Shown here piece after piece: positions 210-37,100 of a stretch of DNA of 63,176 bases; positions within the stretch are counted from its first letter, which is position 1; each line of letters opens with the position of its first letter. The notes under the pieces are model-generated. The model had not been told where the DNA came from and made no database searches. It saw only the letters and a list, made by a program, of their open reading frames with translations. The position numbers were made by a program, and so were the translations under genes. Source of the DNA: Candidatus Micrarchaeota archaeon (GTDB lineage Archaea > Micrarchaeota > Micrarchaeia > Anstonellales > Anstonellaceae); assembly GCA_026396415.1 (NCBI GenBank), contig JAPLWX010000004.1, positions 1-63,176 of the forward strand, in the 5' to 3' direction.

Positions 210-1311
210 TCAGGAAGTCGCGGCAATTCCGATTTTTGGCTGCGCGAGCATGTTTTCGATTTCTTTTTCCACCTCGTGGCGCAGCCTGTATGTGTCCCCC
301 ATCATCGCATATCCCTGCCAGCCAGAGTTTGAGAGGAGTATCCTGCTTTGCTCGATTTCTCCTCGCGCGTATTTTGACCTGAAAAGCGCAAGCCTGCCAA
401 AAACCCTGCGCACGTTGCTTTTCTTCAGGATGCGGAAATGGTAGAATGCCCTGAAGCCGAGAAGCTGCACACCTGAATCAAGCGGAATTATTTTCGTCTT
501 GTCAGGATGGAGTTCTATCTTGAGGCTTTCGCGCAGGAAGGCGTCAATCTGCATTTGCCACTCTTCCAATTGCTTCCTGCTACGATGCAGTATTATGAAA
601 TCGTCAACATAGCGCAGATAATATTTTGCGCGCAGCTTGTGCTTCACAAAATAATCAAGCTCGGAAAGATAGACGTTTGCAAAAAATTGGCTTGTCAAAT
701 TCCCCAATGGCATTCCTTTGCCGGGCGTATCCGTTTTGTGATTTTCGAGGATGCGCGAGATGAGCCAGAGCAAGTCCTCGTCCTTTATCCTCCTGCGCAG
801 GATGGAAAGGAGAACTCTGTGGTCAACAGTTTCGAAATAATGCCGGATATCGGCTTTGAGCGCAAAGCCGACAATCGGATTTTGACTCTCTCTCTCTCTC
901 TCTGCTTATTGTCCTTCCATTTCCAGTCACTCTTCGCGTGAAGCAGCCGAATCTCTTCAAGGCGGCAAGCGTGCCCTTTCCCCTCCTGTTTGCGAAAGTG
1001 TCGCTGATGAAACGACATTCGAAGATTGGCGAGATTACGTTGCAGACTGCGTGATGGATTACCCTGTCGCGGAAGTGCGAGGCTGAGATTTTCCTTGTCT
1101 TCGGGTCGCGGATGGTGAAGGTTGTCAGCGGGTGCGGCTTGTAGGTGCGTGTGAGAAGTTCCCATTGGAGGGCGTAAAGGTTGTTGTTGAGGTTCTTTTC
1201 AAACTCGATGACATATTCCTTCTTTGTTTTGCCCGAGCTGGCGTTAAGGAAGGCATCGTAGAGATTGTCATAGTCGCAGACTTTGGCGAAGAGATTGCGG
1301 TAGGTTTTCAT
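210..1311 (-). pseudogene. DGR reverse transcriptase, frameshifted at an (AG)9 tract (possibly phase-variable OFF state)
   Basis: N-part from ATG 1311 (MKTYRNLF...RDPKTRKISASHFRDRVIHHA...GKGT). C-part is in another frame (GFALKADIRHYF...GMPLGNLTSQFFANVYL...YLRYVDDF). The frame switch lies at 886-903. The GxPxGxxxSQ motif is DGR-type. Confidence 0.92.
886..903 (-). repeat. (AG)9 dinucleotide microsatellite inside the RT gene
   Basis: Plus strand ctctctctctctctctct. (AG)10 or (AG)7 would restore one continuous RT frame. Confidence 0.95.
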
Positions 1312-1341
1312 GAGTGGAAATGCCCTGAAGCCACCAAGAGT

Positions 1342-1448
1342 CATTCCAAAACGGTTAGGCCTGTTGTTGTCGTTGACGTTGCCGAAGTTGACGTCGAACC
1401 TGTTGTTGTAGTTGCCGAGATCGTTGTTGTCGCCGCGGACGGCAGGAC
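1342..1448 (-). ncRNA. DGR template repeat (TR)
   Basis: 107 nt with 31 adenines and 11 AAC codons. Aligns to 1850-1959 with substitutions only at TR adenines. Lies 30 nt upstream of the RT start. Confidence 0.95.
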
Positions 1449-1560
1449 GGACCGTAGCCCACTCACGCAAAACTTCCACTGCGGCTTCAAACGTTCAGCC
1501 TGCGGGCAGCAGGCTTACCAGCTGTCGCCGCTGCATTTCATGGCCGGATAGAACCGCCCA

Positions 1561-1656
1561 CTTTTTGCTTGCGGCAAAAAGGGGCCCCTTTTTCGCCATG
1601 CGAAAAAGAGGGGCACTATGAGGGGGCGTGTGGCTCTGAAGTTGCCTTCAGGGCAT
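1561..1656. other. Hairpin cluster between the DGR target gene and TR
   Basis: CTTTTTGC-ttgcg-GCAAAAAG; GCCCC-TTTTTCGC-cat-GCGAAAAA-GA-GGGGC; CTGAAG-ttgc-CTTCAG. Confidence 0.6.
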
Positions 1657-1678
1657 GCGCTTATCCGCAGGAGGTGCT

Positions 1679-2560
1679 TTAAAGGCTTTTGGCAAGCTCG
1701 TTAATTTCGGCAACCTTCAGCTTCAGTTGGGCATCGGTCAGGTTGGGCAAGTCAACAAGCAGCTCGTTTATTTTTGCCTCTACATCTGCCTTGGTAACTT
1801 TTGCGCCAATCGCACTGGCTTCCCGCACAGGTGCGCCGTTTTCAGTTAACACCCCAAAACGGTAAGGCCTGACGTCGTCGAGGACGCCGAAGAGGACGTC
1901 GAACCTGACCCCGACGCTGAAGTAGCCGAGAACGTCGCCGACGCCGCGGACGGCAGGACCTGGCTTGTAGTAGTAAAGGCGACGTGTTTTTGTGGCATCA
2001 AAGGAACCTGCAATTTCCCCAAGAGGAGCGTTGAACTCCTGCTCAACATACCTCAGCTGACCGCTTTCGTACCTGCCATAGAAGAGGCGCAGGTTGGGAA
2101 GCGCGTTTTCAGGCACATGAATAGCATAGCTGTCTTTGCTTTTATCAACGATATTGTAGCCGTCCTCTATGACCGCGAAGGCGGGCTTTGTGAGGTCAAT
2201 TCCCATTTGCTTTGCCTGCGCTTCGGTAAAGAGGTAGAACCTGGTTGTTTCGCCCCTGAACTCTCCCTCCACATAGAACACGCCATTTTCTTTCTGGAGT
2301 TCGCCAAGAGGCACTATTTCCCCTTTGTGCATTGAGTTGGCGCCCATCAATCTTGACATGACCGGGTAAATTTCCCTCAGCACGTCTCTGTATTTTTGCC
2401 TTGTTTGCGGGTCAGTATAGACGAAATCGAGGTCCTTGTGCCTGATTATGTCCTTGTATTTCTGGAATGCGCCAGGCACGCGGATGCCACCCTGATTGTA
2501 GGACTCCCTGACCGTGAAGCTCTTGTTATTGGCTATGATAGTGCTACCGATAGTTGCCAT
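1679..2560 (-). CDS. DGR target (variable) protein, about 293 aa
   Basis: ATG 2560 (MATIGSTII) is preceded by a GAGGTG Shine-Dalgarno. The ORF contains the VR (PAVRG...RFDV...RPYRFGV) followed by a 56-aa helical tail. Confidence 0.88.
   Translation of the reverse strand: MATIGSTIIANNKSFTVRESYNQGGIRVPGAFQKYKDIIRHKDLDFVYTDPQTRQKYRDVLREIYPVMSRLMGANSMHKGEIVPLGELQKENGVFYVEGEFRGETTRFYLFTEAQAKQMGIDLTKPAFAVIEDGYNIVDKSKDSYAIHVPENALPNLRLFYGRYESGQLRYVEQEFNAPLGEIAGSFDATKTRRLYYYKPGPAVRGVGDVLGYFSVGVRFDVLFGVLDDVRPYRFGVLTENGAPVREASAIGAKVTKADVEAKINELLVDLPNLTDAQLKLKVAEINELAKSL
1850..1959 (-). repeat. DGR variable region (VR)
   Basis: 110 nt. 20 substitutions versus TR, all at TR adenines, plus one 6-nt insertion and one 3-nt deletion. 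Confidence 0.95.
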
Positions 2561-2749
2561 GATTACACCTCTTGGAAGAGTATCTGTAGCAAAGGGTTTA
2601 TAAAGGTTGTGGCAAGAAGAGGCGAGATGTGAGTGAGGCGTTGGCTTGCCAGCACCATTGCGCCTCAACACCCTGATTTTTGGAATGTGGTTCGTTGTTA
2701 CCGAATTCTGCATGAGCCATAATAAGACCCAGGACGGAATAATTATGGC

Positions 2750-2936: not shown

Positions 2937-4214
2937 TCATTGTTCGCCCTTGAGCCTCCGCTGGGTCTGGCGAACCGTGATGTCTGCCAGCTTCCGCGCG
3001 AGGCTATCCATCTCCTTTTTCTGGGCTTCCTGCTTCTTTCCCATCTTCTCAATCTCGCTCTCCAGTTCCCCTATCCGCGTAATCTGCCTGTCGCTATCCA
3101 GCGGCTGCCCGCATTTTCCGCAGTAGTCAAGCCCCAATGGATTCTCAGCCTTGCACGCGCGGCACACGCGGTGCGTTTCTATTTTCTTCAGGGGCTCATC
3201 CTTGGCTTTCCCATGCACGTTGAGAATGGCGCGCTTCACCTGCTCGTCTGTAAGGTGAAGATAGGTACGAGGCATGTCGCTGCCGATTTCCCAGCCAAAA
3301 TACCTGCACAGTATCTGCTCAGTCATGCCTGGCTCGCCGCCAAGCTCGCTGGCGCGCGAATGCCGGAAGTTGTGCGGGTTGATTGGCTTGGTAAATTTTG
3401 GCAGGCCGTTCTTCTTGCGATGCTCGTTCAGGGCATCGCGGGCCTTGATTATCCGGTTGACAAACGATTGCCCGTCCATGGGCCTGCCGTTTGAAGGCCT
3501 TGCCCACAGGAGCGCGTCTTGTTTCTTGATTGGGTGCTCGTCAAGCCATCGCGCAAGGTACGTCTTGGCTTCAATGACAGTGATTCGGCGCTCCCCAGTC
3601 TTTCCGGCAGGGACTTTGATATCCACGCCCTCAGCAGTAAATGTCAGGTCGCCTTTCGTGAGCTGCCGCAATTCGCCCATCCTCATTCCAGAATCGAAAA
3701 GCGTGCAGATTACCGCCTTGTCAAGCGTATTGCCGAATTTGAGAAGCTCGCGCATCTCCGGGCGGGTTATCACTGGCTTTGCCACGCGCTTGTCCTTCAT
3801 GCTCGCCCCAAGCGCCATCATGTCCCTGATTTCCCAGGGTGCGCGCGCCATCGAGCCGTTTTTGAAGTGCTGGAAGCAATACGCGGAACCGAGCGTGCGG
3901 AGGCAGTCCTCCTTGCTTATGTGGGTGTAGTCATTGGCGTTTTTTATAGCCTGGACGGCCTCTTGCAGGGCTTTCTTGCTGCTAATCATCCCCAACAGGC
4001 TTTTCTTTGTGATGTTGTTTGCTATGCAGAGGTCGGTGCGGTATTTCTCCACCCTGCGGTCGCCAACCTTTACCCTCTTCTGGTATTGCGCCCATTTCGC
4101 AAACCTCAGGAAAAGCGCCTTGTCCTCGTTGGTCATCCACTTGCTTTTCCCTATCCGGCTTTTCCACTTCCCGGCATAGTTGTCCTCGGCAGTAATGAAC
4201 ATGCCATCACCCAT
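2937..4214 (-). CDS. Tyrosine recombinase/integrase with C-terminal zinc ribbon and coiled coil
   Basis: SGMRMGEL (R), GKTG (K), HNFRH (HxxR), FGW, RTYLH (Y); CRAC...CGKC. Lies directly downstream of a tRNA. Confidence 0.92.
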   Translation of the reverse strand: MGDGMFITAEDNYAGKWKSRIGKSKWMTNEDKALFLRFAKWAQYQKRVKVGDRRVEKYRTDLCIANNITKKSLLGMISSKKALQEAVQAIKNANDYTHISKEDCLRTLGSAYCFQHFKNGSMARAPWEIRDMMALGASMKDKRVAKPVITRPEMRELLKFGNTLDKAVICTLFDSGMRMGELRQLTKGDLTFTAEGVDIKVPAGKTGERRITVIEAKTYLARWLDEHPIKKQDALLWARPSNGRPMDGQSFVNRIIKARDALNEHRKKNGLPKFTKPINPHNFRHSRASELGGEPGMTEQILCRYFGWEIGSDMPRTYLHLTDEQVKRAILNVHGKAKDEPLKKIETHRVCRACKAENPLGLDYCGKCGQPLDSDRQITRIGELESEIEKMGKKQEAQKKEMDSLARKLADITVRQTQRRLKGEQ

Positions 4215-4289
4215 GCTTTATTGAAGATTAACTATAAAAAGTAGAGCGTTTGACGCCGTAGGCTCTCCAAAGTTATAAAAAAAAGAAAA

Positions 4290-4377
4290 CGCCGGGGGGG
4301 AGATTTGAACTCCCGAGTAGGTTTCCCCACAACAGGTTAGCAACCTGCCGCACTGGACCGGGCTATGCGACCCCAGC
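4290..4377 (-). tRNA. tRNA-Ser(GCT)
   Basis: GCTGGGG/CCCCGGC acceptor stem, GCAGG-TT-GCT-AA-CCTGT anticodon arm, long variable arm, GTTCAAATC T-loop, G discriminator, no encoded CCA. Confidence 0.95.
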
Positions 4378-4542
4378 ACGATCAAATCTCCGCAGAGATT
4401 TGGTCGGTATTTGTGAGCGAAGCTCACAAATCTGATGGCAAAGCCCGCGCACGGGCTTTGGCAACCCCTTTTAGGATGAAAGCAGGCTTTTATTCCTTTG
4501 CCGGATAATACCAAAAAGACGGCAGAAGCAAAAGGTGTGAAA

Positions 4543-6286: not shown

Positions 6287-6709
6287 ATGCACAAACCCAA
6301 ACCTCCTTCGTTCAAAATGCAGCATAGACGATATTGGGAACTTATGAAACTAAAGAAATGGCAATTATGGAAAGTTTATGAGAGTGGGTTATCTTTTGAT
6401 GAATCCGAACTGGAAAGCAAACTAAGGAAGGAAAATATGGCGGAATTTTTCGCCAAATATCTCTTAGACGAAGAGATTTCTATGCTAAGAAAAGCATTCA
6501 AAAAATATCCTCGAAAGTTAAAATGTTATCTTCACTCCGAGTTCAAAGCTCTCGTGACGAACCTCGGCCTGAAGGCCGAGGCTTCTGGAACAGAAGGGGG
6601 AGCCACGCGCCTCGGTGCTCCTCCACTGCCTGAAGGCAAGTGGCTCCCGCACCGAGGTTCGTCAGTGGATAAGAACGACAATATTGTGGGCTATGAACTT
6701 ACACAATAG
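6287..6709 (+). CDS. Hypothetical protein; 3' end runs into the transposase remnant and MITE
   Basis: ORF track only. The first ~75 aa look like a plausible charged protein; the remainder overlaps mobile sequence. Confidence 0.3.
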   Translation: MHKPKPPSFKMQHRRYWELMKLKKWQLWKVYESGLSFDESELESKLRKENMAEFFAKYLLDEEISMLRKAFKKYPRKLKCYLHSEFKALVTNLGLKAEASGTEGGATRLGAPPLPEGKWLPHRGSSVDKNDNIVGYELTQ

Positions 6710-7045
6710 CTCATTCTCCCTTGCCACCGCATTCCTGCTCCTCACCTTGTCCCCAAACTTGGCTTTTACCATGCTGTTCGTGCTTTCCACGTTGCTTCTC
6801 TTGTGGTAGTGCTGGTAAAACTCATCCTGATTTAGCTGGAAATACAGGAACATCTTGCGCCATATCCCCGTCCCTTTACTCTTTCCTGTGGCGTTGGACT
6901 TGAAAGGGATAAACGCCCGTCCTCCCACGTCCTTGACGACTTGGTAATTGTCCCTGCTTGAATATGCCTTGTCTGCGCTGACCTCCACCATATTGAAGCC
7001 TCCTTGTGCCGTTGCAGCCACCAATGGAGCGAATTGTGGGCTGTT
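6518..7045 (-). pseudogene. IS5-family (DDE) transposase C-terminal fragment, interrupted by a MITE
   Basis: SPQFAPLV...SADKAY...YHKRSNVESTNSMVKAKFG...HNIVVLIH, then after the insertion ESFELGVKITF*. The N-terminus is missing. Confidence 0.85.
6555..6665. mobile_element. About 111-bp IS200/IS605-type MITE
   Basis: Terminal 13-bp IR TGACGAACCTCGG/CCGAGGTTCGTCA; hairpins CCTCGGCC-TGAA-GGCCGAGG and CCACTGCC-TGAA-GGCAAGTGG. Removing it restores the transposase frame. Confidence 0.75.
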
Positions 7046-8295: not shown

Positions 8296-11037
8296 CTACC
8301 TGTATCTCAGGAAAGCCCCTATCCCATAAAAACTGCCAAGGAACTGCGCGCCCTCCGCGGTGTCGGGCGAGACCACGAAGATGTCGATGCCCTGCCTGTC
8401 TGCAAGTGAGATTAAATCGTCCACCAATGAGACTTCAGACTCCACCTTCACCGTGCCGCCGATTGCCTTTATTTTTTCTGCCAGGTCAAAGGGGGTTTTC
8501 GAGGTGACATACTGCGCCTCGAGAGTGGTGGTGTCCACAAGCTTTGCGCGCTTGTAGGCGACGCCTTCGGAAATCAGAAGCTCCTTTGCCTGCTTGGACT
8601 CGAGCGCTTTCCTTACTTCAGCCTCGCCGTATGTGGCAAGCCCGCCTGCCACCACTTCTTTTATGAACCTCTCGACAATCACGCGCTCGCGTATGGCCTG
8701 CTGCTCCGAGAGGATGTCGGTGGACTTTGCCATCACTTCCCGCACGCCGTATTCGTCTGTGTAGCCCGTGTCCACCACGCCCAGCACCTTTATCTGGTAG
8801 TTGAAAGGCGACATCTTGAAAAAATCGTCCTTTGCAGGCCCTGGCCCGCCGATTATCACGCCCTTCACGCTGTTGACAAAGTACTTGTCCATGTATTCGC
8901 CGATGCGCTTGTAGTAAAGCTCGATGGATTCCTCTATCAGCCGCTCGTACCTGCGCGCGCTGTTGTGCACGATGAAGCCGTTTGCCACGAAGTTGAATGC
9001 GTTTGGCACCGTCAAATCCACGTATTCGCGCTCGCCGGTGATTGGTATTTTTTCCGCCACGCGCGCAACCCCGATGTCGTTTGAGAGCCACTTTGCAAGC
9101 ACCTTTCGGGCAATCCCCTCTTTGCCAAGCGTGCGTGCGCGGGAAAGCAGCACGCCTTCGATATTCTTCCTGAATGCCGCCCGCCCGAGCGGTTTTTTGT
9201 TCCTGAAGAAATTGCTTGCCGCGTGGAAGTCGCTTGTGGAAAGCCCGAGCGAACGGGCAAATGCAAACACTTCCCTGCCGTCAACCGGCACCTGCTCCAC
9301 AAACTGCATCTTCACTTCCCTGTGCATGATATCCTGCAAAGCATCCGACTTGTCTTTCCTTGAAAAGCCTATTTCCGATGAAAAGATGGCCAATGAGGCG
9401 GAATCTGAAATGCTTGTGCACCACTGCGGGTTGCCAGCCACCGTCTTTTGCGAAAATGATGCGCGGATGCCGAAGCGCAGGAGAATGGACTGAACCTGGC
9501 GCATCATCTTTTCCGAGCGCATTGCGATTTCCACGCGCTTCCCGTGTAGGTAGCCCTCAGCATCGTAAAGCCCCGAGAGGAAGGCGGCCTGGACCTGGAG
9601 AGGGGAGCACTGTATCTGCACAGGCACGCATCTTTCGTCTGATGCCGCGAGGATTTGCGGCACTTCGCCTGCCACGAAATCCGCAAACTCCTTGCTGTAA
9701 ATGCGCAGTTCGTAATAGGGCTTCTTTGCAAACGAGCCTTTCTGCCCTGTCTTGTCCACCTTGCGGCAGACCGCAATTATCCCGACCGCGTCCAGCACCG
9801 CCCGGGAATATTTTTCAACCATCTGGTTGTAGCTTTCGTAAATTATTACCCTGTTCCCATCCAGCGTGCCGTCACCCGCTATTACTCCGAGAAGATAGGC
9901 AAGCCGCGGCGTGTAGGTGGCGGGAAGCTTAAGCGCAGGCGCTGCAAACTTCTTTTCGTCGAGCTTGAGGCCATAAAGTGCATACATCTGCCTGATCTTT
10001 CCAGCAGAAAGTGGAATTTCCCCCCGCTCCATCCTGCAGATTGCCATCTGCGTGATGCCGAGTTTTTTTGCCACTTTTGACTGCGGCCAGCCAAGCTCGC
10101 TTCTGCGGAAGCGCAGGCTTTCATATTCCCCCTCGTCAAGCGAAATTCTCGTTTCAGGCTTGTACCTGATTTCCACGTCTTTGCCATCGTGGTGGATTTT
10201 TTTGGCAACCAGCACCCTGTCGCCAATTTTCAGGTCTTTTGCATATGTTTCCCGCACGCCATTTTCCCCGATTGTGAAAAACCTGTGCCACGCCGTTGCA
10301 ACTATTTCCATTTTCGGCGCATGTGCCACTATTTTGTAGGCACTTTTGGAGCGAGTTTCAAACCGGTCTGAGCATTGCCAGTCGCCTATCGAAAATTCCG
10401 AGAGATCCGCTCCTTTCAGGTGCGAACCAGCGGCGACATCGCCCACTCTCGCAAGCGTGCCGTCTGACATCTGCACCATAGTATCGGGAGCAAGGCACTG
10501 CCCGCCTTTTCGTATTTTTGCATGCGCGGTGGAATTCAGGCGATGAAGTATGCGCGTGTTGGTGCCGCGAAGCTCGGCAAGCGTGCATTCGCGCCCGTCA
10601 AGGACTACGAGCCCGTATGAGTCCGTTACCTCCAATGTGCGCTCAAGGGGCTCCAGGAAAAAGCGCGAGTCGCATCGGTAAATCTGCACCATGATCGGCT
10701 CGGGAGGATAGATGGTGAAAAGCTCGATGACCACCTTTGCCGGGTTGTCAGATACATTGCCGCAGAAAATTGCAACTCCTGAGTGCGGAGCGACATTTCC
10801 GTAGCTTTTAAGATGATGCAAAATCCTCTCAAGCGCATCCACCACGTTCTTTCTCGTGCCTTTGCTTTTGATGTTGGTCGCCTGGCCTGCCTCGCCGCGC
10901 AGCTTGTTTGAGGTCTCATGTATTGCTTGCTCTGACGGAATGTACACTGAAATAAGCTCGGTGCCTGAGCCTTTCATTGCCTTGAGGTGCGCAAGCTGCT
11001 TTTTCAGCTCGTACTTGAGTTTTGTCTTTTCTTCCAT
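8296..11037 (-). CDS. prf1: Peptide chain release factor aRF1 with intein
   Basis: GTELISVYIP, NIKS, YRCD, KGGQ|intein|SARRYER. Confidence 0.96.
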   Translation of the reverse strand: MEEKTKLKYELKKQLAHLKAMKGSGTELISVYIPSEQAIHETSNKLRGEAGQATNIKSKGTRKNVVDALERILHHLKSYGNVAPHSGVAIFCGNVSDNPAKVVIELFTIYPPEPIMVQIYRCDSRFFLEPLERTLEVTDSYGLVVLDGRECTLAELRGTNTRILHRLNSTAHAKIRKGGQCLAPDTMVQMSDGTLARVGDVAAGSHLKGADLSEFSIGDWQCSDRFETRSKSAYKIVAHAPKMEIVATAWHRFFTIGENGVRETYAKDLKIGDRVLVAKKIHHDGKDVEIRYKPETRISLDEGEYESLRFRRSELGWPQSKVAKKLGITQMAICRMERGEIPLSAGKIRQMYALYGLKLDEKKFAAPALKLPATYTPRLAYLLGVIAGDGTLDGNRVIIYESYNQMVEKYSRAVLDAVGIIAVCRKVDKTGQKGSFAKKPYYELRIYSKEFADFVAGEVPQILAASDERCVPVQIQCSPLQVQAAFLSGLYDAEGYLHGKRVEIAMRSEKMMRQVQSILLRFGIRASFSQKTVAGNPQWCTSISDSASLAIFSSEIGFSRKDKSDALQDIMHREVKMQFVEQVPVDGREVFAFARSLGLSTSDFHAASNFFRNKKPLGRAAFRKNIEGVLLSRARTLGKEGIARKVLAKWLSNDIGVARVAEKIPITGEREYVDLTVPNAFNFVANGFIVHNSARRYERLIEESIELYYKRIGEYMDKYFVNSVKGVIIGGPGPAKDDFFKMSPFNYQIKVLGVVDTGYTDEYGVREVMAKSTDILSEQQAIRERVIVERFIKEVVAGGLATYGEAEVRKALESKQAKELLISEGVAYKRAKLVDTTTLEAQYVTSKTPFDLAEKIKAIGGTVKVESEVSLVDDLISLADRQGIDIFVVSPDTAEGAQFLGSFYGIGAFLRYR
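8962..10497 (-). mobile_element. Intein (512 aa) with XRE-HTH insertion and LAGLIDADG endonuclease
   Basis: Starts CLAPDT, ends FVANGFIVHN, +1 Ser; LLGVIAGDG and FLSGLYDAEG blocks. Confidence 0.93.
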
Positions 11038-12294: not shown

Positions 12295-12455
12295 CAGCTC
12301 ACCTTTTTCCCAATCCGCCTGCCCACACAGATATGCCATTTATCCCTGAAAAGGATTAAAAATGAAGCGCGCACCAGTCCATCAGCATGGCACCATTTAT
12401 ATAGTTTTCTTTAATGATGTTAATCACTCAAACCTTAGAACATACGGTGGCGAAT

Positions 12456-14435
12456 ATGACATTGGAAATTATTTCCTTAAATGCGCTGCCAATTTCCATC
12501 GCTTTTTTCCTGTTCGGTGCGCTCCTGCCGCTCGCCTTTTCAGCAAAACCCAAGTTAAGCTCGAAGCTTGGCTTTGGCTTTGCGATATTGGGCAGCCTCT
12601 TCGCACTGGCGGCAGGGGTCATGGCCATTTTAGGGGCAGGCACAGGGGCCTTCACCCTGGCATCGTTTGAATATGTCGGCTCGCTCTCGATAAGCATGGA
12701 CGCGCTCTCGGGATTTTTCGTCTCTTTCATCGCCTTTGTCGGCATTGCAGTTTCCATCTACTCGCTGAGCTACACCGCGGAGTATATCAAGAAAGGATAC
12801 AGCATTGCGCGCTTCGGATTTTTCTATAACATTTTTCTCCTGTCCATGATCCTGGTGGTATCTGCGCAAAATGCGCTCCTCTTCCTAATCATCTGGGAAA
12901 TCATGGCGATAAGCTCATACTTCCTGGTGACTTATGAGCACAAGGAGGAAAGCGTGCAGTCTGCCGGTTTTATCTATCTTCTTATTGCCCACATAGGCGC
13001 TGCTGCACTGGCAGTCATGTTCCTGGCGCTAGCGTCAGGGTCAGGCTCCATGGACTTTGCCTCGTTCCACCAGGCATCCTATCCGCCCTTCCTTGCAAGC
13101 GCAATTTTCATGCTTGCGCTTTTCGGGTTTGGCTCCAAGTGCGGAATAATCCCGCTGCATGTCTGGCTGCCCCTCGCGCATCCGCAGGCGCCAAGCAACA
13201 TTTCGGCACTGATGTCCGGGGTGATGCTCAAGACCGCCATATACGGGCTTGTGCGCGTCCTTTTTGATTTCCTGGGCGTTGCCAATGGCGCCGAGCTTTG
13301 GTGGGGCTTGCTGATTCTTGCGCTTGGGATGATTTCCTCAATATTCGGAGTGCTTTACTCCCTCCTGGAGCACGACATCAAGCGGTTGCTTGCGTACCAC
13401 AGCATAGAGAACATAGGGATCATATTCATCGGCATTGGCGCCGCGTTGCTTTTCTCATGGGCGCACCAGCCGGCACTTGCCGCGCTTGCGCTTTTTGCAG
13501 CGCTTTACCATACCCTTAACCATGCGCTTTTCAAGAGCCTGCTATTCCTGGGGGCAGGAAGCATCATCCACGCAACGCATGAGAGGAACATAGATGAGAT
13601 GGGGGGCCTTGCCAAATACATGCCATTCACGGCAGTGTTGTTTTTCCTGGGCGCGGCATCCATTGCGGCGATTCCGCCGTTAAACGGGTTCGCAAGCGAA
13701 GTGCTGACTTTCCAGGCGCTCCTCGCTGGCATTGAGCCAGGGGTGCAAACTTTCAATTTCACCTCGCTCGTGCTCGCAATTGCCGTTCTTGCCCTTGCCC
13801 TGACAAGCGCGCTGGCGGTAGGCGCATTCGTCAAGGCATTCGGGATACCGTTCCTCGGGCAACCACGCTCAAAACACGCCGAACACCCTCACGAGGCGCC
13901 CAAAACCATGCTCCTGGGCATGGCACTTCTCGCAGTTGGCTGCATCGCGGCGGGAATCTTCCCATCGCTTCTCGCGCAGGCGTCATCAGGCATGCTGGAA
14001 AGCCTGCATTTCGCCGGGGCGTCAAACGCCATTGTCCCATCAGCTGAGGCGCTGCCCAATGCCGTGGTCCTGCTCTTGCTCCTGGCAGGCTCGGCCCTGA
14101 TTATCTGGCTCCTAACGCTTTCCTCAAAGAAAAAGCACAACCATGTTGGCGAGACATGGGGATGCGGCTTCCCAAACGGCACGCCGCACATGCAGTATTC
14201 CGCAGCGGGATTTGCCATGCCGGTCACCAAGGCGCTTGACGCGTGGCTTAACCCGCTGGAAAGCGCATCTGCTTACGGCCCTGCCCTGTTTGACAAGTAT
14301 ATATACGCCCCGATTTCGAATGCATTCCAGTTCGTTGCGCCGCACTCGGCGATATTCAATACAGGCAGGCTGAATGATTACCTGATGTACCTGATATTGA
14401 CGCTTGCCATAGTATTGGCATATGCAATTTTGTGA
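12456..14435 (+). CDS. hyfB: HyfB/NuoL-like proton-translocating antiporter subunit
   Basis: WEIMAISSYFLV, PLHVWLPLAHPQAPSNISALMSG, KRLLAYHSIENIG, NHALFKSLLFL, PPLNGFASE, TWGCG. Confidence 0.9.
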   Translation: MTLEIISLNALPISIAFFLFGALLPLAFSAKPKLSSKLGFGFAILGSLFALAAGVMAILGAGTGAFTLASFEYVGSLSISMDALSGFFVSFIAFVGIAVSIYSLSYTAEYIKKGYSIARFGFFYNIFLLSMILVVSAQNALLFLIIWEIMAISSYFLVTYEHKEESVQSAGFIYLLIAHIGAAALAVMFLALASGSGSMDFASFHQASYPPFLASAIFMLALFGFGSKCGIIPLHVWLPLAHPQAPSNISALMSGVMLKTAIYGLVRVLFDFLGVANGAELWWGLLILALGMISSIFGVLYSLLEHDIKRLLAYHSIENIGIIFIGIGAALLFSWAHQPALAALALFAALYHTLNHALFKSLLFLGAGSIIHATHERNIDEMGGLAKYMPFTAVLFFLGAASIAAIPPLNGFASEVLTFQALLAGIEPGVQTFNFTSLVLAIAVLALALTSALAVGAFVKAFGIPFLGQPRSKHAEHPHEAPKTMLLGMALLAVGCIAAGIFPSLLAQASSGMLESLHFAGASNAIVPSAEALPNAVVLLLLLAGSALIIWLLTLSSKKKHNHVGETWGCGFPNGTPHMQYSAAGFAMPVTKALDAWLNPLESASAYGPALFDKYIYAPISNAFQFVAPHSAIFNTGRLNDYLMYLILTLAIVLAYAIL

Positions 14436-14440
14436 TTGAT

Positions 14441-16081
14441 ATGCTTGAAATTCTTTTCACCCTTATCCTGGCAATAGCGCAGGTTGCATTCGTTCTCTTG
14501 GCAGCCCCGCTTTTGATCGGCATCATGCGCAAGGTCAAGGCGCGCTTCCAGGGGAGGGTTGGAAGCCCCCTCATCCAGCCGTACATTGACCTTCAGAAGC
14601 TGTTCTCCAAAGGCACCGCCAAAAGCGCAGTGACTTCGTTCATATTTGCAATCGCCCCGGTGGTTGGCTTCGTGTCGATCGCCATAGCCGCATTGATGCT
14701 TCCAATCCTCTCCTCATCGCCGTTATTGACCGGAGGCATCATCGTTTTCATTTATCTTTTTTCAATCGGCAGGTTCCTGACCGCGCTTTCGGGCCTCGAT
14801 GCCGGCAGCGCATTTGGAGGCATGGGCTCAAGCCGAGAGATGCTGTATTCCATTTTCATCGAGCCTGCGCTGTTTTGCATTATCCTTCTCATAGCCACAT
14901 CAGGCAGCTTAAGCATTGCCCCCCTCGCGCCAGACACGGCATCCTGGCAGGCCTCGATCTCCACCCCGGCCTACTGGCTCATCGCCATCGCATTGTTCAT
15001 AGCGATACTTGCCGAAACAGGAAGGCTTCCGTTCGACAATCCGGCAACGCATTTGGAACTGACCATGGTCCATGAAGCGATGATACTTGAAAATTCCGGG
15101 CCAAATCTTGCGCTTATAGAGTGGGCAAATGCAATCAAGATATTCCTGTTCTTCTCCCTTATGGGCATCCTTCTGATGCCAGGGGACATCCAAGCAAGCC
15201 TGCTCTGGCCGGCAATCCTCCTGGCGTTTTGCGTGGCGTTGGGAATATTTGTGGCGGCAGTCGAGAGCATCAGCGTCAAGGTGCGGCTGTTCAAGGTCTC
15301 CGAGCTTCTTATATTTTCCATCCTGCTTGCGCTCCTGGCATTCCTGACGCGCATCTTCGCTGTCAAGCCTGAGAGCGGGATGCAATCAGTCCTGGCGCTT
15401 GCCATGCTCCTCGCCGCAATCTATTCCATATTCAGCCTCACCTTCCGTGACCGCATCAAGCTTTACATAATACAGAGCATTTGCCTTGTCCTCATCCTTC
15501 TCCAAATTACCCTCATTGACGGCGCAGAAGGCATGAACTACCTGTTCCTGCTGACCATTGCCATCTTCAAGATTGCCGTCATCCCGTTTGTCCTGTACAA
15601 CAGCATGTCGTATGGCATGCAGCTCATGCCGCTGCAGTTTTATCTCCGGTTCGGGAAAGCCAGGAAAAAATTCAAATTGGACCTGGAAGCCGACCCTCTT
15701 TTCATGACCGCGCCAATGACGACTTCCCGCGCGCTTGTCTATGCAGGCGTCCTAGTCGCGCTGTCTTTCGCAGTCTCGTCGGTCCTGGGCGGCACCACAA
15801 TCATGCTGCCCATGGCAGTCTCGCTCATCCTCATCGGCATGCTCATCATCGCATCCAAGACCCACCTGCTCCTGCAGCTGCTTGGCTTCCTGATGATGGA
15901 AAACGGGGTCGTGCTCCTCCCATATGCCCTGCACATCAACATGCCATTCATTGGCGAATTGGTCACCCTGTTCGACCTGGTGATCCTGGTGAGGATCACA
16001 TTGCTCCTGTCATTCAAGATGAAGGAAACCCATGGCACGCTGGACACCAAGAAGCTCGTCGAACTGGTGGAAAAAAGGTGA
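14441..16081 (+). CDS. Fused HyfC(NuoH-like)-HyfE membrane subunit
   Basis: RKVKARFQGRVG, GSSREM, ETGRLPFDNPATHLELTMVHEAMILE (HyfC); C-terminal half with YIIQS and GFLMMENG (HyfE). Confidence 0.85.
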   Translation: MLEILFTLILAIAQVAFVLLAAPLLIGIMRKVKARFQGRVGSPLIQPYIDLQKLFSKGTAKSAVTSFIFAIAPVVGFVSIAIAALMLPILSSSPLLTGGIIVFIYLFSIGRFLTALSGLDAGSAFGGMGSSREMLYSIFIEPALFCIILLIATSGSLSIAPLAPDTASWQASISTPAYWLIAIALFIAILAETGRLPFDNPATHLELTMVHEAMILENSGPNLALIEWANAIKIFLFFSLMGILLMPGDIQASLLWPAILLAFCVALGIFVAAVESISVKVRLFKVSELLIFSILLALLAFLTRIFAVKPESGMQSVLALAMLLAAIYSIFSLTFRDRIKLYIIQSICLVLILLQITLIDGAEGMNYLFLLTIAIFKIAVIPFVLYNSMSYGMQLMPLQFYLRFGKARKKFKLDLEADPLFMTAPMTTSRALVYAGVLVALSFAVSSVLGGTTIMLPMAVSLILIGMLIIASKTHLLLQLLGFLMMENGVVLLPYALHINMPFIGELVTLFDLVILVRITLLLSFKMKETHGTLDTKKLVELVEKR

Positions 16082-16085
16082 AAAT

Positions 16086-17549
16086 ATGCTTGAACTTATC
16101 ATCCTCCCTCCGCTTATAGCCGGGGTTCTTGCATTTGTATTCCACCGCAGCCCGCGCCAGGTCGAAGCCATTGCAGTCGCCGGCGCAATCCTTGCAGCCT
16201 TCTTCGCATTGCTTTCGGTAAATGCCTTCCTCGGGCCGGAAGTCGGCTTCCGCGATTTCTATGGGGTATTCTATATGGATGCTGTCTCCGGGCTTTTCAC
16301 AGTGCTTACCGCAGTGGTCGCCTGCTTTATCTTCCTTTATTCAGTCGGCTACATCCGCCACGAAGTGAAGGAGAACATTGTGGAGAGGGACCAGATCGGG
16401 CTTTATTACGGGCTGCTCTCCTTCTTTTTGGCAGCCATGCTTGCCGCCACGCTGGCAACCCATCCGGTTGTGATGTGGGCCGCCATAGAGGCGACCACGC
16501 TGGCGTCGGTGTTCCTGATAAGCTTCTACCAGAACTCAAGCGCAATCGAAGCCGCCTGGAAATTCTTCATCATCAATTCGGTGGGAATCCTTCTGGCGCT
16601 TGCCGGCATACTGTTCCTTCTGTTTGCCCTTCTTCCGGCCGGCTCTACATCGGGCGGGGATTGGGACAGCCTTATGATAGTCAAGGAAGGGGCCAACCTG
16701 CTCTTCCTCAAAATAGCATTCGCATTCATCCTCGTCGGCTTCGGGACCAAGGTCGGCCTGGTCCCGCTCCACGTCTGGCTCCCAGATGCGCACAGCCAGG
16801 CGCCCACGCCGGTCAGCGCCATCCTCTCGGGCCTGCTGCTCAATATCGCATTCTATGGGATTGTGAGGACATACCAGGTCGTGGCGCCTTATGACTCCAT
16901 GGTCTCGTTTGCATCCGGCCTCCTAATCGGCTTTGGCCTCCTGTCGCTTGCCATTGGCTCGCTCCGCATCTATTTCCAGCACAACATCAAGCGCATGCTT
17001 GCGTATTCCAGCGTGGAAAACATGGGAATTGTCACGCTCGCATTTGGCCTGGGCGGCCCGCTCGGAATCGCCGCCGCCCTGTTCCACATGGTCAGCCATT
17101 CCCTTGCCAAGCCTTTGGCATTTTTTGGAAGCGGAATAATCGCATTTGCATTCAAGACCAAGGAAATGCCATTCATCCGGGGCGCGGCGCAAATCATTCC
17201 GCTGGTTGCCATCCCGTTTGTTTTCATTGCCGCGGGCCTGGCAGGCAGCCCACCGTTCGGAACCTTCCTCTCGGAATTAGGAGTGCTGGCAGTTTCCCTG
17301 TCAACCAGCCAGATGCTGATTGCCGCCCTATTCATAATTTTCACCACCATTGCATTCGCCAGCCTGCTCTACCGCGTTTCCGCCATGAGCTTTGGCTCCA
17401 CGCCGGAAGGCATATCCGCTTTTTCGCCTTCCCTCACCATGATGGTTTCATTTGTGGCATTGCTGGCACTCACGGTGTACATGGGCATACTGCCCCCTCC
17501 CCAATTCATGCATCTCTTGGAACTGGCAGTGCACGCTATCATAGGTTGA
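16086..17549 (+). CDS. hyfF: HyfF-like antiporter subunit
   Basis: WAAIEATTLAS, EAAWK, GFGTKVGLVPLHVWLPDAHSQAPTPVSA, KRMLAYSSVENMG. Confidence 0.9.
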   Translation: MLELIILPPLIAGVLAFVFHRSPRQVEAIAVAGAILAAFFALLSVNAFLGPEVGFRDFYGVFYMDAVSGLFTVLTAVVACFIFLYSVGYIRHEVKENIVERDQIGLYYGLLSFFLAAMLAATLATHPVVMWAAIEATTLASVFLISFYQNSSAIEAAWKFFIINSVGILLALAGILFLLFALLPAGSTSGGDWDSLMIVKEGANLLFLKIAFAFILVGFGTKVGLVPLHVWLPDAHSQAPTPVSAILSGLLLNIAFYGIVRTYQVVAPYDSMVSFASGLLIGFGLLSLAIGSLRIYFQHNIKRMLAYSSVENMGIVTLAFGLGGPLGIAAALFHMVSHSLAKPLAFFGSGIIAFAFKTKEMPFIRGAAQIIPLVAIPFVFIAAGLAGSPPFGTFLSELGVLAVSLSTSQMLIAALFIIFTTIAFASLLYRVSAMSFGSTPEGISAFSPSLTMMVSFVALLALTVYMGILPPPQFMHLLELAVHAIIG

Positions 17550-17553
17550 TGAT

Positions 17554-19131
17554 ATGGACGGACAAACAAAACAATTCATCCGCGCCCTCGAATCTTCAGT
17601 CAGGGCCGGGAGCTTGAATGACTCGTCTGAGAAAGGAGGCTGCCTTTTCTTTCGCGTGCTTCCAAAATACCTGATCCCGGTTTGCCGCGCCTGCATGTCA
17701 AATGGGGCGGTTTTTGATTCTGCATTTGTCTCGTCAGCCGACCAGGGCAGGGGGGAGTTCAATGTTTACTATCTCTTCCAGGTTGCAGCCATCCACCGCA
17801 TGGTTGCAGTCACGTCCAGGGGCAGCGCGTTTGACGCCCTTTCCGAAACGGTCAATGCGGCATTATGGGACGAGCGAAAAATCCAGGACCTTACAGGCTT
17901 GCGCCTGGCAGGCATCCCGGATTCCCGCCCCCTCCTGTTCCACCCTGAAAGCGGCTTCCCTGCAACCCACCCCATTGGCGGGATGCCATTCAAGCGCCCC
18001 AAAAACAATGCATACCCCATGATAGGCACCGGCGTGGAGGGGGAATTCGAGGTCGCAGTGGGCCCGGTGCACGCAGGCATAATCGAGCCAGGGCACTTCA
18101 GGTTCCACGTCTTGGGGGAAAAAATAAACAAGATGGAAGTGAGGATGTTTTACCTGCATCGCGGCATTGAAAAGGCGGCAGAAGGCAAGCAGGCAGATGG
18201 CATACTGCCTTTAATAGAGCAGATTTCCGGCGATGAAGCAATCGCCAACTCAGTCGCCTACTGCTCTGCAGTGGAGCAAGCCCTTAAAATACAGGTCCCG
18301 AAGCGCGCAGAGGCCATCCGCGCAATCTGCATGGAGCTGGAGCGCATTTACAGCCATCTTGCAGACCTGGGGGGCATGGCGACCGATGTCGGTTTCACTT
18401 TGCCTGCCTCACGCTTCGCGGTTTTGCGGGAAGACGCCATGAGGCTCAATGCAGAGGTTTCCAAAAGCCGCTTCCTGCACAATCAATGCATCGTGGGAGG
18501 CGTGAGAGCTGACCTTGATTCAGTCAAGACGGCAAAAATCGCAGGCACGCTTGGGCAGATGCTTTATGCGCTTGAGGAGCTGGAGCGCATGGTGTTCACC
18601 TCTTCAACTTTCCTGGACAGGGCATTCCAGGCAGGCACTGTGTCTCGGGGAATTGCCAGGGACCTGTCGCTTGTCGGCCCGCCTGCCCGCGCATGCGGCA
18701 TCCACTCTGACCTGCGGAGAGTGCTTCCGTATTCCGCTTATGCCCAAACCGCAATCAACGAGTCGATTGAAAAGGAAGGAGGGGACGTCCTATCCCGCTT
18801 TCGGGTCAAGCTTGCAGAAATCAATGAGTCTGCCAGGCTGATTTTGCTGCTTGTTTCCAATATGCCACCCGGTACCCTGTGCGATAAGCCATCCGCGCCA
18901 AAGAAGCGCACGGAAGCGGCAGTTGGTGTCGGCTGGGCAGAATCCCCGCGCGGCAGCTGCACCATCCTTGTGGAAATATCCCAAAATGGAGCCATCAAGC
19001 GCCTTGCCTGCCGCTCGGCGTCATTTAGGAACTGGCGTGCGCTTGAAAAAGCAGTGGAAGGCAACATAGTCCCGGATTTCCCTCTCATCAACAAGAGTTT
19101 CAACCTGTCCTATGCAGGGACTGACATGTGA
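17554..19131 (+). CDS. HyfG/NuoCD-like (Ehr) large subunit without NiFe-binding cysteines
   Basis: VGPVHAGIIEPGHFRF, HRGIEK, ELERIYSHL, ESPRG, VPDFPLINKSFNLSY; both CxxC motifs are absent. Confidence 0.9.
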   Translation: MDGQTKQFIRALESSVRAGSLNDSSEKGGCLFFRVLPKYLIPVCRACMSNGAVFDSAFVSSADQGRGEFNVYYLFQVAAIHRMVAVTSRGSAFDALSETVNAALWDERKIQDLTGLRLAGIPDSRPLLFHPESGFPATHPIGGMPFKRPKNNAYPMIGTGVEGEFEVAVGPVHAGIIEPGHFRFHVLGEKINKMEVRMFYLHRGIEKAAEGKQADGILPLIEQISGDEAIANSVAYCSAVEQALKIQVPKRAEAIRAICMELERIYSHLADLGGMATDVGFTLPASRFAVLREDAMRLNAEVSKSRFLHNQCIVGGVRADLDSVKTAKIAGTLGQMLYALEELERMVFTSSTFLDRAFQAGTVSRGIARDLSLVGPPARACGIHSDLRRVLPYSAYAQTAINESIEKEGGDVLSRFRVKLAEINESARLILLLVSNMPPGTLCDKPSAPKKRTEAAVGVGWAESPRGSCTILVEISQNGAIKRLACRSASFRNWRALEKAVEGNIVPDFPLINKSFNLSYAGTDM

Positions 19132-19140
19132 GGAATTGAT

Positions 19141-19692
19141 ATGCTGCTTGAAAACCTTCGTTTCATATTCGACCGCCGCTATACAGACACGTTGTCCTCA
19201 AAATCGGACGACCCTGCGGTGCGGGAAGTCGTGCAACTTCTCAAGCAGAGGGGGCGCTCGCCCTTCGCGCGCTCCATCCATGTCCGCATGGTGGACGCGG
19301 GCTCGCCAAACGACGTGGAACTTGAGGAAGGGCTCATGATGTCGCCCCGCGTGGACGCCGAGCGTTTCGGGGTGCATTTTGTCGCGTCCCCAAGGCACGC
19401 AGACGTTCTTTTGGTGACAGGGCCCGTTGCAAAAAACATGCACATTGCGCTTATCAAAACATACGAGGCAATGGCAGAGCCGCGCGCGGTTGTTGCCGCA
19501 GGCGACGGCGCCTGCCTTGGCTGGGAGGGAAAGGCAAACTACGCGCTTGCGGAAGGAACGGGCAAAGTGCAGGACGTGCTCCATGTTGACGTGGCGGTGC
19601 CTGGCAATCCGCCCACGCCATACCAGCTGCTGGCAGGCATGCTAAAGGCAGGCGCGGCGCTTGCGAAAAAGAGCGAGGAGCACAGAAAGTAG
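19141..19692 (+). CDS. HyfI/NuoB-like small subunit lacking the four Fe-S cysteines
   Basis: DAGSPNDVELE, ERFGVHFVASPRHADVLLVTGPV, AGDGA, VPGNPPTP. Confidence 0.9.
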   Translation: MLLENLRFIFDRRYTDTLSSKSDDPAVREVVQLLKQRGRSPFARSIHVRMVDAGSPNDVELEEGLMMSPRVDAERFGVHFVASPRHADVLLVTGPVAKNMHIALIKTYEAMAEPRAVVAAGDGACLGWEGKANYALAEGTGKVQDVLHVDVAVPGNPPTPYQLLAGMLKAGAALAKKSEEHRK

Positions 19693-34155: not shown

Positions 34156-37100
34156 CTACTTCCTCTCTCCATATTCCTGCGTGAAGGAAACATACTCCTT
34201 CAGGTCCTTGCCTGTGATGGAGGGCCGCCTGGTGCCAACCACATCAAGCACCGAGTCCGTTGTCACATCGGTTGGCTTGCCCTTCAGCTTTTGGCGGACC
34301 AGCTCCATTTTCACTTCCTGGCAGATGGAGGCGATGTCCGCGCCTGAGAAGCCGTCGGTTGCCGCTGCAAGCCTGTCCAGGTTCACGTTCTTGAGGAACT
34401 TGGCAAGCCCGAGCGCAAACACCTGCTTCCTTGCAGGGACGTCGGGCGGGGGTATGTATAATATCTTGTCAAACCTGCCAGGGCGCAGGATTGCCGCGTC
34501 AAGCGCAAATGGCTTGTTCGTGGCGCCCACTATCATCACATTCTTCAGCTCCTTCACTCCGTCCAGTTCCTGGAGGAGCTCGGTGAGTATGCCGCCGCGG
34601 TACTCGTCGCGGCTGGGGGCAAGCGCCTCTATCTCGTCAATGAATACAAGGGCAGGCGCGCTCTCCCGCGCGCGGTTGAAGACCTCCTTCACGTAGGCGG
34701 ATGGCGTCTTGTCGCGGCTTTTCATGAGCTCGGAGCCGGAAATGGTAAGGAAATTGGCATTGAGCTCGTTTGCAGCCGCCTTCACTATCATGGTCTTTCC
34801 GCAGCCAGGCGGGCCATAAAGCAGCAGCCCCTTGCTTGGCTTGACATCCATCTCTTTCATGAGGTCCTCATGCAGGAGCGGGATTTCAATGGACTCGAGA
34901 AGCACGCGGCGAACCTCGGAAAGCCCTGCCACATCCTCCCAGCGCACGCCCTTTTCCTCGGGTTTTTTCTCCACTGCATCGCTCCTCCGCTCGAAGTCCA
35001 TGCGGAAGCGCTCGTAGTTCTCAAGGGAATCGAGCGAGTTTGACGGCTTGACGCGCTTTATTATGTTTGTAAGGTGCGCCATGGAGATTTTGACCACCGT
35101 TTGCGCACTCATTGCCTCGCGCGCAGCGAGCCGCGACGCCTCGGTCACGATGTTTTTTATGTCCGCGCCAGAATAGCGCTCCGTGATTGCGGCAAGCCTG
35201 CCATAGTCTATGTCATCGGAAGAGGGCAGTTTCCTGAGGTTGACCTTGAAAATCGCCGCTCGCGCATCCTTGTCCGGCAGGTGCATGTATATTATCTTGT
35301 CAAACCTGCCCGGGCGCATGAGCGCAGGGTCGAGCTGGTCGGGCAGGTTGGTGGCGCCCACGAATATCACTGGCTTTTTCGAATTGGGGGTAAACCCGTC
35401 CAGCTCCTGCAGGAGCACGCTCATCACGCGCGGGGCAACATCATCGCTTGTGTAGGAATCGCGCTTCTTGCCGATTGAGTCTATTTCATCGAAGAACAGC
35501 AGGAAGGGCGCGCCCTTGCGGGCGATTGAGAATACCTCGGACAGGTTCTTTTCCGAGTTGTGCGCGAAAATCCCGCCAAAGCCGCCTGCGAAATTTTGGC
35601 ACGGCTCGACTGAAATGTCAAAGACGAATTCCTCATCCGCAACGCGCGTTATCCCCTCCACACGGTCCCAATGGAGGTCGTTTGAAACTGCTGAATATGC
35701 GGCATCGTCGCCGGCTTCGGCGGCAAGCGAGGAGAGCATGCCTGCCCCTATTGTGGCGCAGTTGCAATGGTTTGGCGCATGCTGGGAAACAAAGCCCCCC
35801 ATTGCGCCGCTTATCGGTATCTGCCTGCCGCGGTGCCAGTTGCCGCGCGAGGCGCATCTCTCAAGCCGCCCCTGTTTTTCAGCGAATGTGAAGCCTATGC
35901 GGCATGCAAATGCACGCAGTTGCTCGCCTGCCATGCATATCCTGTGCGCGGGCAGCCCGTGCTTTTCAGTCTTGCTATACACGGTGGCGACGATTCCGAA
36001 TCGCAGCAGAAGGTAAAGGAGCTGGTCCGCAAGCTGCCCACTCACCGTGCCGGCCTCAATGGTGCCAAAGCCCTTCTGGTTGGCATAAATACTTCCGTCG
36101 CCGGAGAAATAGCCGCGCAGGAAAGAGGAAAGGTTGCGCTCGGACAGGTTGAATGCGATTGCAGGCGCTTTCTTCTTCACAGCGCCATCATCCAGCCCGA
36201 GGCAGTGGCGCATCAGCACATAAAGCGCACGCGAGCCTATGTAGATGTCGCGGCCATGGCACTCCTTGGCGCTTGCGCTGCCACCGGCATCAGAGCTGCC
36301 ATCGGAGCCCGCGCTGCCATTTGTGCCGGCGCTGTTTTTCTTTTTGTAGATTGTGGCGCTGCCGAAAAGCCTTTGGCAGAGTTGCGACACCTGTGCAACC
36401 TCTTTGTCGGAAGTGCTTATCCTGACGGTGTGCCCTGCGTTGTAGCTTCCCTCGGCAACCCAAAGGCCTAGGAAAAGCGCAAAATCCTCATTTATTGCAA
36501 TTTCCCCGGCAAGCCCGTTCTTCCCGGCAAAAACCTCCACGCCTGCCGCATCAAACTCCACGCCAGCCTCTTCCATAAGGCGGAGGAAGCGGCCCGCGCG
36601 CACGCCTATGTTTTGCCGCAGCACCTGCTTGAGGTACGCAGTGCGCCTGATGCCAAGGATTGCGCATGCTTTCTTTTCTCCCAGCGCAGCCACCGCATTT
36701 TCAAGAAGCAGCCGCGCACCCCTCACCTTCAGCCTGAAATCATTTTCGCGCAGCAGGCGCAGGAACTCCAGCTTTTCCACAGGCAATGAGGGCGCGGGAA
36801 TTCTGGATGGGATTGCGATATGCGAAACGCCTGCGACAAGCTCGGACGTCTTCACGCTTTTCACGGTGTAGCCGTCCAGCGTGAAAAGCGAGTGGTAGCC
36901 TGTGACTCTGATGCGCCTGCCGGTGCGCGTGCGCACCTCGTAAATTGGGGAGGTGCATTTGTGCTTCATGTGCCCGCAGATATCCGCAAACACCGCCTTG
37001 CCATTTGCGTCAAACGAAAGCACTTTCGCGCGCATTTTCCCTTCCACCACCTTTCCGATTTCCTCAAGCCGGATGCGCCCCCCTTCCATGATGGTTATTT

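Follow-up and report, generated by a model that had tools for sequence, protein, structure and literature searches.

The retroelement and its components

The stretch of DNA considered here, the window, is an entire contig (JAPLWX010000004.1, 63,176 nucleotides, contig C14 below) of assembly GCA_026396415.1 from a Candidatus Micrarchaeota archaeon, an archaeal genome of 1.74 Mb in 52 contigs that is 92% complete. Close to its left end, on the minus strand, lies a diversity-generating retroelement (DGR) in which a target gene, a spacer, a template repeat (TR) and a reverse transcriptase (RT) gene follow one another in that order, as the first-pass annotation had it. Judged by its sequence features the locus is a DGR of the DPANN/Nanoarchaeota type and an ordinary new member of an archaeal type that has been described; what is new is not the kind of DGR but an RT gene probably gated by a short repeat, which in the window copy is out of frame. 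The hallmarks found at the locus are differences between TR and variable repeat (VR) confined to adenines, a VR in the 3' part of the target gene, a TR directly upstream of the RT, the pair of initiation of mutagenic homing sequences (IMH in the VR, IMH* in the TR) and an RT-16 RNA. An intact RT reading frame is absent from the window copy and present in a paralogue on contig C31.

The target gene (1679..2560, minus strand) encodes a variable protein of 293 residues. The body of the protein resembles a C-type lectin, the VR is internal and the tail, of ~56 residues, forms two helices. Its sequence found no match in Pfam, NCBIfam or PHROGs, single-sequence and profile searches of the PDB gave nothing usable, and homologues were confined to 21 representative clusters at E<=1e-3 among 1.84 billion proteins. 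A first AlphaFold2 model built from 11 sequences was unusable, with a predicted local distance difference test score (pLDDT) of 45.4; a second, built from a 27-sequence alignment, reached a mean pLDDT of 91.2 and a predicted template-modelling score of 0.80. The top structural match of this model is 5ioo_B, the Nanoarchaeota variable protein AvpA (Z 7.2, root-mean-square deviation 4.2 over 157 residues), followed by many C-type lectin domains at Z 5.2-6.9 and also by a Thermus DGR variable protein. A Foldseek search of the same model against the PDB gave no match at E<=0.001. The fold is probably that of a C-type lectin, an assignment from a predicted model that is held with moderate confidence because the Z scores stay below 8 and Foldseek found no match. 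Upstream of the gene is a leader or promoter block (2553..2631, minus strand) with TTTATAA and GAGGTG before the ATG, the boxes having been assigned by eye, and this block is 83-86% identical to those upstream of otherwise unrelated target-like genes on contigs C31, C44 and C16.

Target gene and TR are separated by a spacer of 230 nt, most of which is taken up by a match to the RT-16 RNA motif (Rfam RF03019; 1449..1653, minus strand), the 3' end of which abuts the 5' end of the TR. The match scores 55.1 bits against a gathering threshold of 50 and covers the full model (1-158) with one large insertion of ~51 nt in the cmscan alignment. Of 20 related loci, 19 have an RT-16 match that passes the gathering threshold, and in the loci whose coordinates were compared (L010, L015 and L018) the motif ends where the TR begins. 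The RT-16 of the C31 paralogue scores 81.8 bits. The insertion corresponds to a palindromic repeat (1554..1612) resembling a repetitive extragenic palindrome (REP) or miniature inverted-repeat transposable element (MITE), with nested hairpins around GGGGCCCC, of which another ten copies, all partial, lie on contigs C25, C9, C31, C38, C51, C46 and C50. This repeat may have weakened the window copy. A TTTAAA box (1678..1683, minus strand) lies 27 nt upstream of the start of RT-16, overlapping the stop codon of the target gene, and is a possible archaeal TATA box for a transcript of RT-16, TR and RT. Folding of ~80-90 nt of DNA after the VR gave no hairpin or cruciform better than those of shuffled sequences either in the window copy (z -1.12) or in the C31 copy (z 0.04).

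Adenine-specific differences between the repeats

The TR (1342..1448, minus strand; 107 nt) holds 31 adenines and 11 in-frame AAC codons, and the VR (1850..1959, minus strand; 110 nt) covers about residues 201-237 of the target protein. Both repeats, and the number of AAC codons, are as the first-pass annotation had reported. Comparison was made by a gapped alignment with 104 aligned columns and 29 TR adenines, the ungapped version being split between offsets of 511 and 508. All 20 substitutions from TR to VR fall at TR adenines in this alignment (random-placement P 7.8e-15), nine of them A>T, nine A>G and two A>C, and 19 of the 20 are at the first or second codon position of the target frame. 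The formal alignment that had been named as the means of refuting adenine specificity thus turned up no mismatch elsewhere among the 20. The accompanying statement that all other positions are identical is right in so far as the aligned columns contain no substitution away from an adenine, but it had missed two in-frame insertions or deletions (indels). These divide the alignment into three blocks and adjoin AAC codons: the VR has six additional bases at 1910-1915, readable as a duplication of AAC-AGG changed only at A, and is without one AAC that is present in the TR (1379-1381).

The VR carries an IMH-like TGGGGT (1856-1851) and the TR an IMH* of TGGAAT (1348-1343), a difference that is fixed in all ten related pairs of repeats. 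The AA of the TR at 1345-1344 and the GG of the VR at 1853-1852 are identical in every one of these pairs, and two of the 20 substitutions are therefore best read as the IMH*/IMH difference and not as fresh mutagenesis. The same AA forms part of an ATG (TGGAATG; 1344-1342, minus strand) that is in frame with the RT and lies 11 codons upstream of MKTYRN; four homologues (P0002, P0006, P0008 and P0011) are annotated from the equivalent ATG, and translation of the RT may begin within the last bases of the TR.

In-frame indels in AAC runs are common among the relatives, with +6 and -3 in the window copy, -3 in C31 and L014, -12 in L015 and -15 in L020/L021. Length differences were found in six of the ten related TR/VR pairs, five of them distinct and all multiples of three. 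Being units of 3-15 nt within AAC runs, they do not point to BHB introns in the TR. A survey of 372 DGRs reports length differences in 25 (7%), with 14 of the 25 being multiples of three and 74% of indels adjoining AAC, and in its passages on these differences ascribes them to slippage of the RT (Wu et al. 2018, PMC5758913). The indels seen here are of the same AAC-adjacent, in-frame kind as those that the survey describes, and their frequency in this small clade (6/10 pairs) is much higher than its 7%.

It had been proposed that the genome be searched with the TR for remote VRs. The search, made with pieces of the TR in which A was treated as N and up to three other mismatches were allowed, returned only the known VR across the 52 contigs.

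The reverse transcriptase and its frame break

The RT is encoded in two halves on the minus strand. The N-terminal half (904..1311, ATG at 1311) matches residues 3-127 of PDB entry 8ub7 (E 2.2e-22). The C-terminal half (210..885, stop at 212-210) lies in the +1 frame with respect to the first and matches residues 135-320 of the same entry (E 7.7e-21) and the Pfam family RVT_1 (E 1.1e-10). For both halves 8ub7 is the best relative of solved structure. The intact RT of the C31 paralogue matches 8ub7, which we take to be the DGR RT of the Bordetella phage BPP-1 although no paper naming the entry was found, from end to end (E 2.8e-44). The RT also matches PHROG 1423 (E 1e-116). All RT matches in NCBIfam, which has no DGR model, were below their cut-offs. 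In DGR RTs the motif [LIV]GxxxSQ replaces the QGxxxSP of group II intron RTs; the C-terminal half has LGNLTSQ, together with YVDD, and a group II intron RT elsewhere in the genome, on contig C52, has QGGVISP and is 27% identical to the DGR RT. There is no open reading frame between target and RT that could encode Avd, and a search of the genome, 92% complete, with Pfam PF05635 found nothing. Not all DGRs have an Avd. The claim that a DGR-type RT follows the TR was accurate as to its motifs (GMPLGNLTSQ and YVDD are both present) but not as to a single open frame.

The break is at a dinucleotide tract, (AG)9 on the minus strand and (CT)9 on the plus strand (886..903), situated in a loop tolerant of length differences just upstream of a conserved LKADIRHYF block. 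Read in the frame of the N-terminal half, the tract leads to a stop 26 codons further on, at 825-823. One unit more, (AG)10, or two fewer, (AG)7, would join the two halves. Because (AG)9 places the N- and C-terminal halves in different frames, the RT gene of the window reads as OFF at the level of the DNA.

Dinucleotide tracts are prone to error, and a break in a low-complexity tract could be produced by sequencing or assembly in a gene that is really intact. Such an origin would be in keeping with two metagenome contigs (L016 and L017) that begin at the tract and a contig of one run (X6) that ends within it. The tract was followed through independent contig assemblies of four sequencing runs from two studies, which were compared as assembled contigs and may include the source sample. 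(AG)9 was present with no gaps in all four, at depths of ~7-22, and assemblies of many different origins show the pattern again. The tract is accordingly not a slip of assembly, since the same (AG)9 is found in contigs of four runs and two studies, and an artefact is regarded as highly improbable.

Variation of the tract among relatives

A second complete DGR in the same genome (C31, 3851-6111; locus L001) is 85% identical to that of the window and has (AG)10 at the same place in an intact RT. Its VR differs from its TR by 16 changes, all at adenines, and a 3-nt deletion. The target protein of this copy is only 24% identical to that of the window, and the neighbours of the C31 DGR include a Dam-like methyltransferase and a possible restriction enzyme. 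Decayed remnants of the element also occur, as RT 3' fragments of 80 and 58 codons (C29 20400-20642 and C44 1194-2347); on C44 one fragment and a copy of the leader of the target gene are about 900 nt apart.

The survey of related RTs drew on 15 metagenome loci and on 176 genomes of the same order, in 37 of which an RT match was found. RTs were classified only where both halves were on the contig, and seven partial loci were dropped. A repeat was found at this loop in 33 related RTs, six of them in frame and 27 out of frame, with the break always at the repeat, and all six RTs without a repeat at the loop are intact. The kind of repeat varies by lineage within the order, from (AG)5-12 to G8-22 and C9-12. 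The order-level relatives (L122-L138) include other lineages in which poly-G (8-22) or poly-C (9-12) stands in place of (AG)n; one of the 33 RTs (L129) has an N in its tract, between two G-runs. The corrections of frame required are +1 in some RTs and -1 in others (15 versus 12).

The ten out-of-frame copies with AG tracts all have no stop within either half, and in all pairs of OFF copies among these ten the ratio of nonsynonymous to synonymous substitution rates (dN/dS) is 0.01-0.27 in both halves where dS is not saturated. Substitution patterns therefore indicate that both halves of the RT are under purifying selection. The matches of L008 and L009 contain a stop, and their tract is a short (AG)3.

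The closest comparisons are provided by pairs of nearly identical elements. C31, with (AG)10 and in frame, differs from L010, with (AG)9 and out of frame, at 25 sites over 2261 nt, of which 11 are in the body of the target, 13 in the VR, none in the spacer and RT-16, none in the TR and one, the AG unit, in the RT. Between L014, in frame with (AG)6, and L019, out of frame with (AG)7, there are 15 differences over 2141 nt, 14 of them in the VR and the remaining one again the AG unit. L011 and L018, which belong to one lineage, have (AG)11 and (AG)9. By these comparisons the tract keeps pace with the rewriting of the VR and outruns every point substitution in the RT. The rewriting of the VR between strains was seen in C31/L010 and L014/L019, that is in the lineage of the paralogue and in relatives and not at the locus of the window.

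Two biological alternatives bear on these observations. It could be that the out-of-frame state is decoded, the tract serving to set a low dose of RT, with any length giving a small share of full-length protein. An out-of-frame majority (27/33) that nevertheless remains intact under purifying selection is what would be expected of genes still making RT. A slip by two on AG (AGA to AGA, GAG to GAG), or by one on poly-G or poly-C, should re-pair perfectly, and RNA polymerase may also slip; the homopolymers run up to G22, and long homopolymers are classic substrates for slippage. Set against this, no single directional signal is conserved, slippage of the ribosome by two on AG repeats is itself an inferred mechanism for which there is no source to cite, and the length of the tract changes in the DNA between otherwise identical genes, which recoding does not need. 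Recoding is considered unlikely. In its narrowest form, as one programmed frameshift in a fixed direction and the sole explanation, it can be rejected, because both +1 and -1 breaks occur.

The other alternative is decay, in which slippage killed the RT, a small repeat landed in RT-16 and the out-of-frame relatives represent many independent recent deaths. It would account for the remnants of the same element on C29 and C44, for the insertion in the RT-16 of the window copy, for a VR that is unchanged in all four runs and for the stops that accompany (AG)3 in L008 and L009. It does not sit easily with ten out of ten out-of-frame AG-tract copies lacking any other lesion and having low dN/dS, or with the intact target reading frame and TR of the window copy. 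In the two pairs with differing tracts the RT is otherwise identical and the VR has just been rewritten, and across the order a single loop preserves three kinds of repeat in pure form. Repeat-free RTs are never broken (6/6). As an account of the whole, decay is doubtful.

Genomic setting

The gene content of the contig is archaeal and includes eRF1, a Cdc48-like ATPase, an S-layer protein and a class III signal peptide, and the closest named relatives of the DGR proteins are in Micrarchaeota and other DPANN archaea. The host is a Micrarchaeota-like archaeon, a tiny freshwater organism. A viral origin of the DGR finds no support, the best viral relative being 58% identical and the others 33-39%, and a search of a contig collection for relatives of the RT gave as its sole match a distant bacterial RT of 38% identity.

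On the target-gene side of the DGR there is a tyrosine integrase with a C-terminal zinc ribbon (2937..4214, minus strand; Pfam Phage_integrase, E 1.8e-15, and a PHROG integrase), and beyond it a tRNA-Ser (GCU) gene (4289..4378, minus strand) that is a likely integration site. Since integrase and tRNA-Ser both stand beside the target gene, the DGR cassette is probably the cargo of an element integrated at the tRNA. The assembly yielded no second copy of the attachment site at the tRNA-Ser end. The far end of the element is invisible because the contig, which extends 210 nt beyond the RT stop, ends in a repeat of 141 nt (1-141) that also terminates seven other contigs (C31, C18, C27, C23, C21, C7 and C13). 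On its minus strand this repeat weakly resembles domains D1-D4 of group II introns in Rfam, at a score well short of gathering (18 bits, E 0.72), and a group II intron RT is present in the genome on C52. A multi-copy intron has probably broken the assembly 70-100 nt past the stop of the DGR RT.

Several other features of the contig may be recorded. The genes for eRF1 and the Cdc48-like AAA ATPase (8296-11037 and 34156-38439) each contain one intein with a LAGLIDADG homing endonuclease. Six genes at 12414-19692 encode Mrp/complex-I-like membrane subunits and a NiFe-hydrogenase-like large subunit, resembling an Mbh/Ech-like group 4 hydrogenase, a cluster that deserves notice given that the genome belongs among relatives that are small DPANN archaea. 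A fragment of a DDE transposase, the C-terminal part only, lies at 6662-7024.

The tract as a probable switch

How the element would work can be sketched by analogy with the DGR of the Bordetella phage. An RNA with RT-16 as its scaffold, together with the TR and the message for the RT, would be transcribed, the RT would copy the TR into complementary DNA (cDNA) while misreading adenines, and the cDNA would replace the VR in the lectin-fold target gene. The difference between TGGGGT in the VR and TGGAAT in the TR would keep the transfer one-way, and slippage on AAC runs would add in-frame indels. Gain or loss of AG units during replication would then toggle the RT, and with it targeted hypermutation, in a manner both heritable and reversible.

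Taken together the observations are explained best, and we think on balance correctly, by a DGR of DPANN type in which the RT is off and the (AG)n tract acts as a slipped-strand contingency switch on hypermutation. A switch is the natural reading because the tract changes as fast as the VR and faster than point substitutions in the RT. The tract also has features by which contingency loci are recognised, in that an intragenic unit that is not a multiple of three sets the frame and, among the relatives, its length differs between nearly identical genes and both frame states are seen. The wider proposition, that across the order a hypermutable repeat at one permissive loop of DPANN DGR RTs gates a targeted hypermutator on the time scale of VR rewriting, is put at a little better than an even chance. 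Such an arrangement would have two tiers, with a stochastic and heritable DNA switch set above the hypermutator, so that the receptor would stay fixed in the majority of cells while a minority tried out new variants.

Substantial caveats must be applied to this interpretation. (AG)9 and a single VR sequence, identical throughout, were found in the contigs of all four runs, so that at the level of contigs no variation in length was seen. No in-frame sibling of the window RT was found, its nearest relatives being at dS of at least 0.6. The proportion out of frame (27/33) exceeds the two thirds expected from random tract lengths, and fits either a gene that is mostly off or recoding. The check for other lesions covers the ten out-of-frame AG-tract copies and not the 17 order-level loci, and several of the RT matches in genomes of the order carry internal stops. 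The tallies overstate the sample because kin are not independent. Finally, the RT-16 of the window has the third-lowest score of the 21 matches scored (55.1 bits) and carries the insertion, so that the window copy may be dying rather than resting; it is perhaps both OFF and decaying.

Full-text literature searches, with supplements and a 2017 paper by Paul et al. that is said to concern groundwater DPANN DGRs lying outside their scope, did not turn up any account of a repeat that switches a DGR RT. The control of DGR activity is largely an open question, and an uncontrolled RT risks off-target damage and the loss of a receptor variant that works. If the contingency switch is real, the DGR has a built-in regulator of its activity that brings the logic of contingency loci to archaea, and small symbiotic archaea could retain a variant that serves them well without giving up the capacity to alter it. 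Such a switch would also connect contingency repeats with retro-mutagenesis, both of them classic routes to localized hypermutation. There is a practical consequence for annotation, as many DPANN DGR RTs will be called two fragments or pseudogenes though they are probably resting genes.

Comparison with known systems

The DGR of phage BPP-1 (mtd-avd-TR-brt) is the mechanistic prototype. The window DGR shares with it the adenine-specific transfer from TR to VR, a TR rich in AAC, a target with a putative lectin fold and the asymmetry of IMH and IMH*. It differs in having no Avd, in a structured RNA (RT-16) that is 5' rather than 3' of the TR, in its archaeal host and in an RT apparently gated by a repeat.

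Closer counterparts are found among archaea. The DUSEL4 Nanoarchaeota DGRs have an IMH of TGGGGT and an IMH* of TGGAAT (Paul et al. 2015, PMC4372165), and AvpA has an internal VR followed by a helical tail and adopts a C-type lectin fold (Handa et al. 2016, PMC5006420). The window DGR resembles those of DUSEL4 in its identical IMH and IMH*, an orphan target without a database family, target, TR and RT on one strand and a DPANN host. With AvpA, as it is described there, it shares the internal VR and the helical tail (46 residues in AvpA and ~56 here), and AvpA (5ioo) is the best structural match of the target model. The GRA-loop hairpin reported inside the DUSEL4 target gene was not seen here when the DNA after both VRs was folded and compared with shuffles. 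The window DGR differs too in lacking a candidate reading frame between target and RT, and a frame-breaking (AG)n tract in the RT, as found here, is not mentioned in the passages on DUSEL4 and AvpA that were compared.

The tract itself is most like those of contingency loci, having an intragenic unit that is not a multiple of three, lengths that differ between nearly identical strains, both frame states and a gene that is otherwise conserved. Familiar examples are the CT repeats in outer-membrane protein genes of Helicobacter pylori and the poly-G tracts of Campylobacter, and homopolymeric tracts in prokaryotic genes were reportedly treated by Orsi et al. in 2010. What sets the present case apart from contingency loci is that it is archaeal and that the gene gated would be the engine of a targeted mutation system instead of a surface antigen or restriction enzyme.

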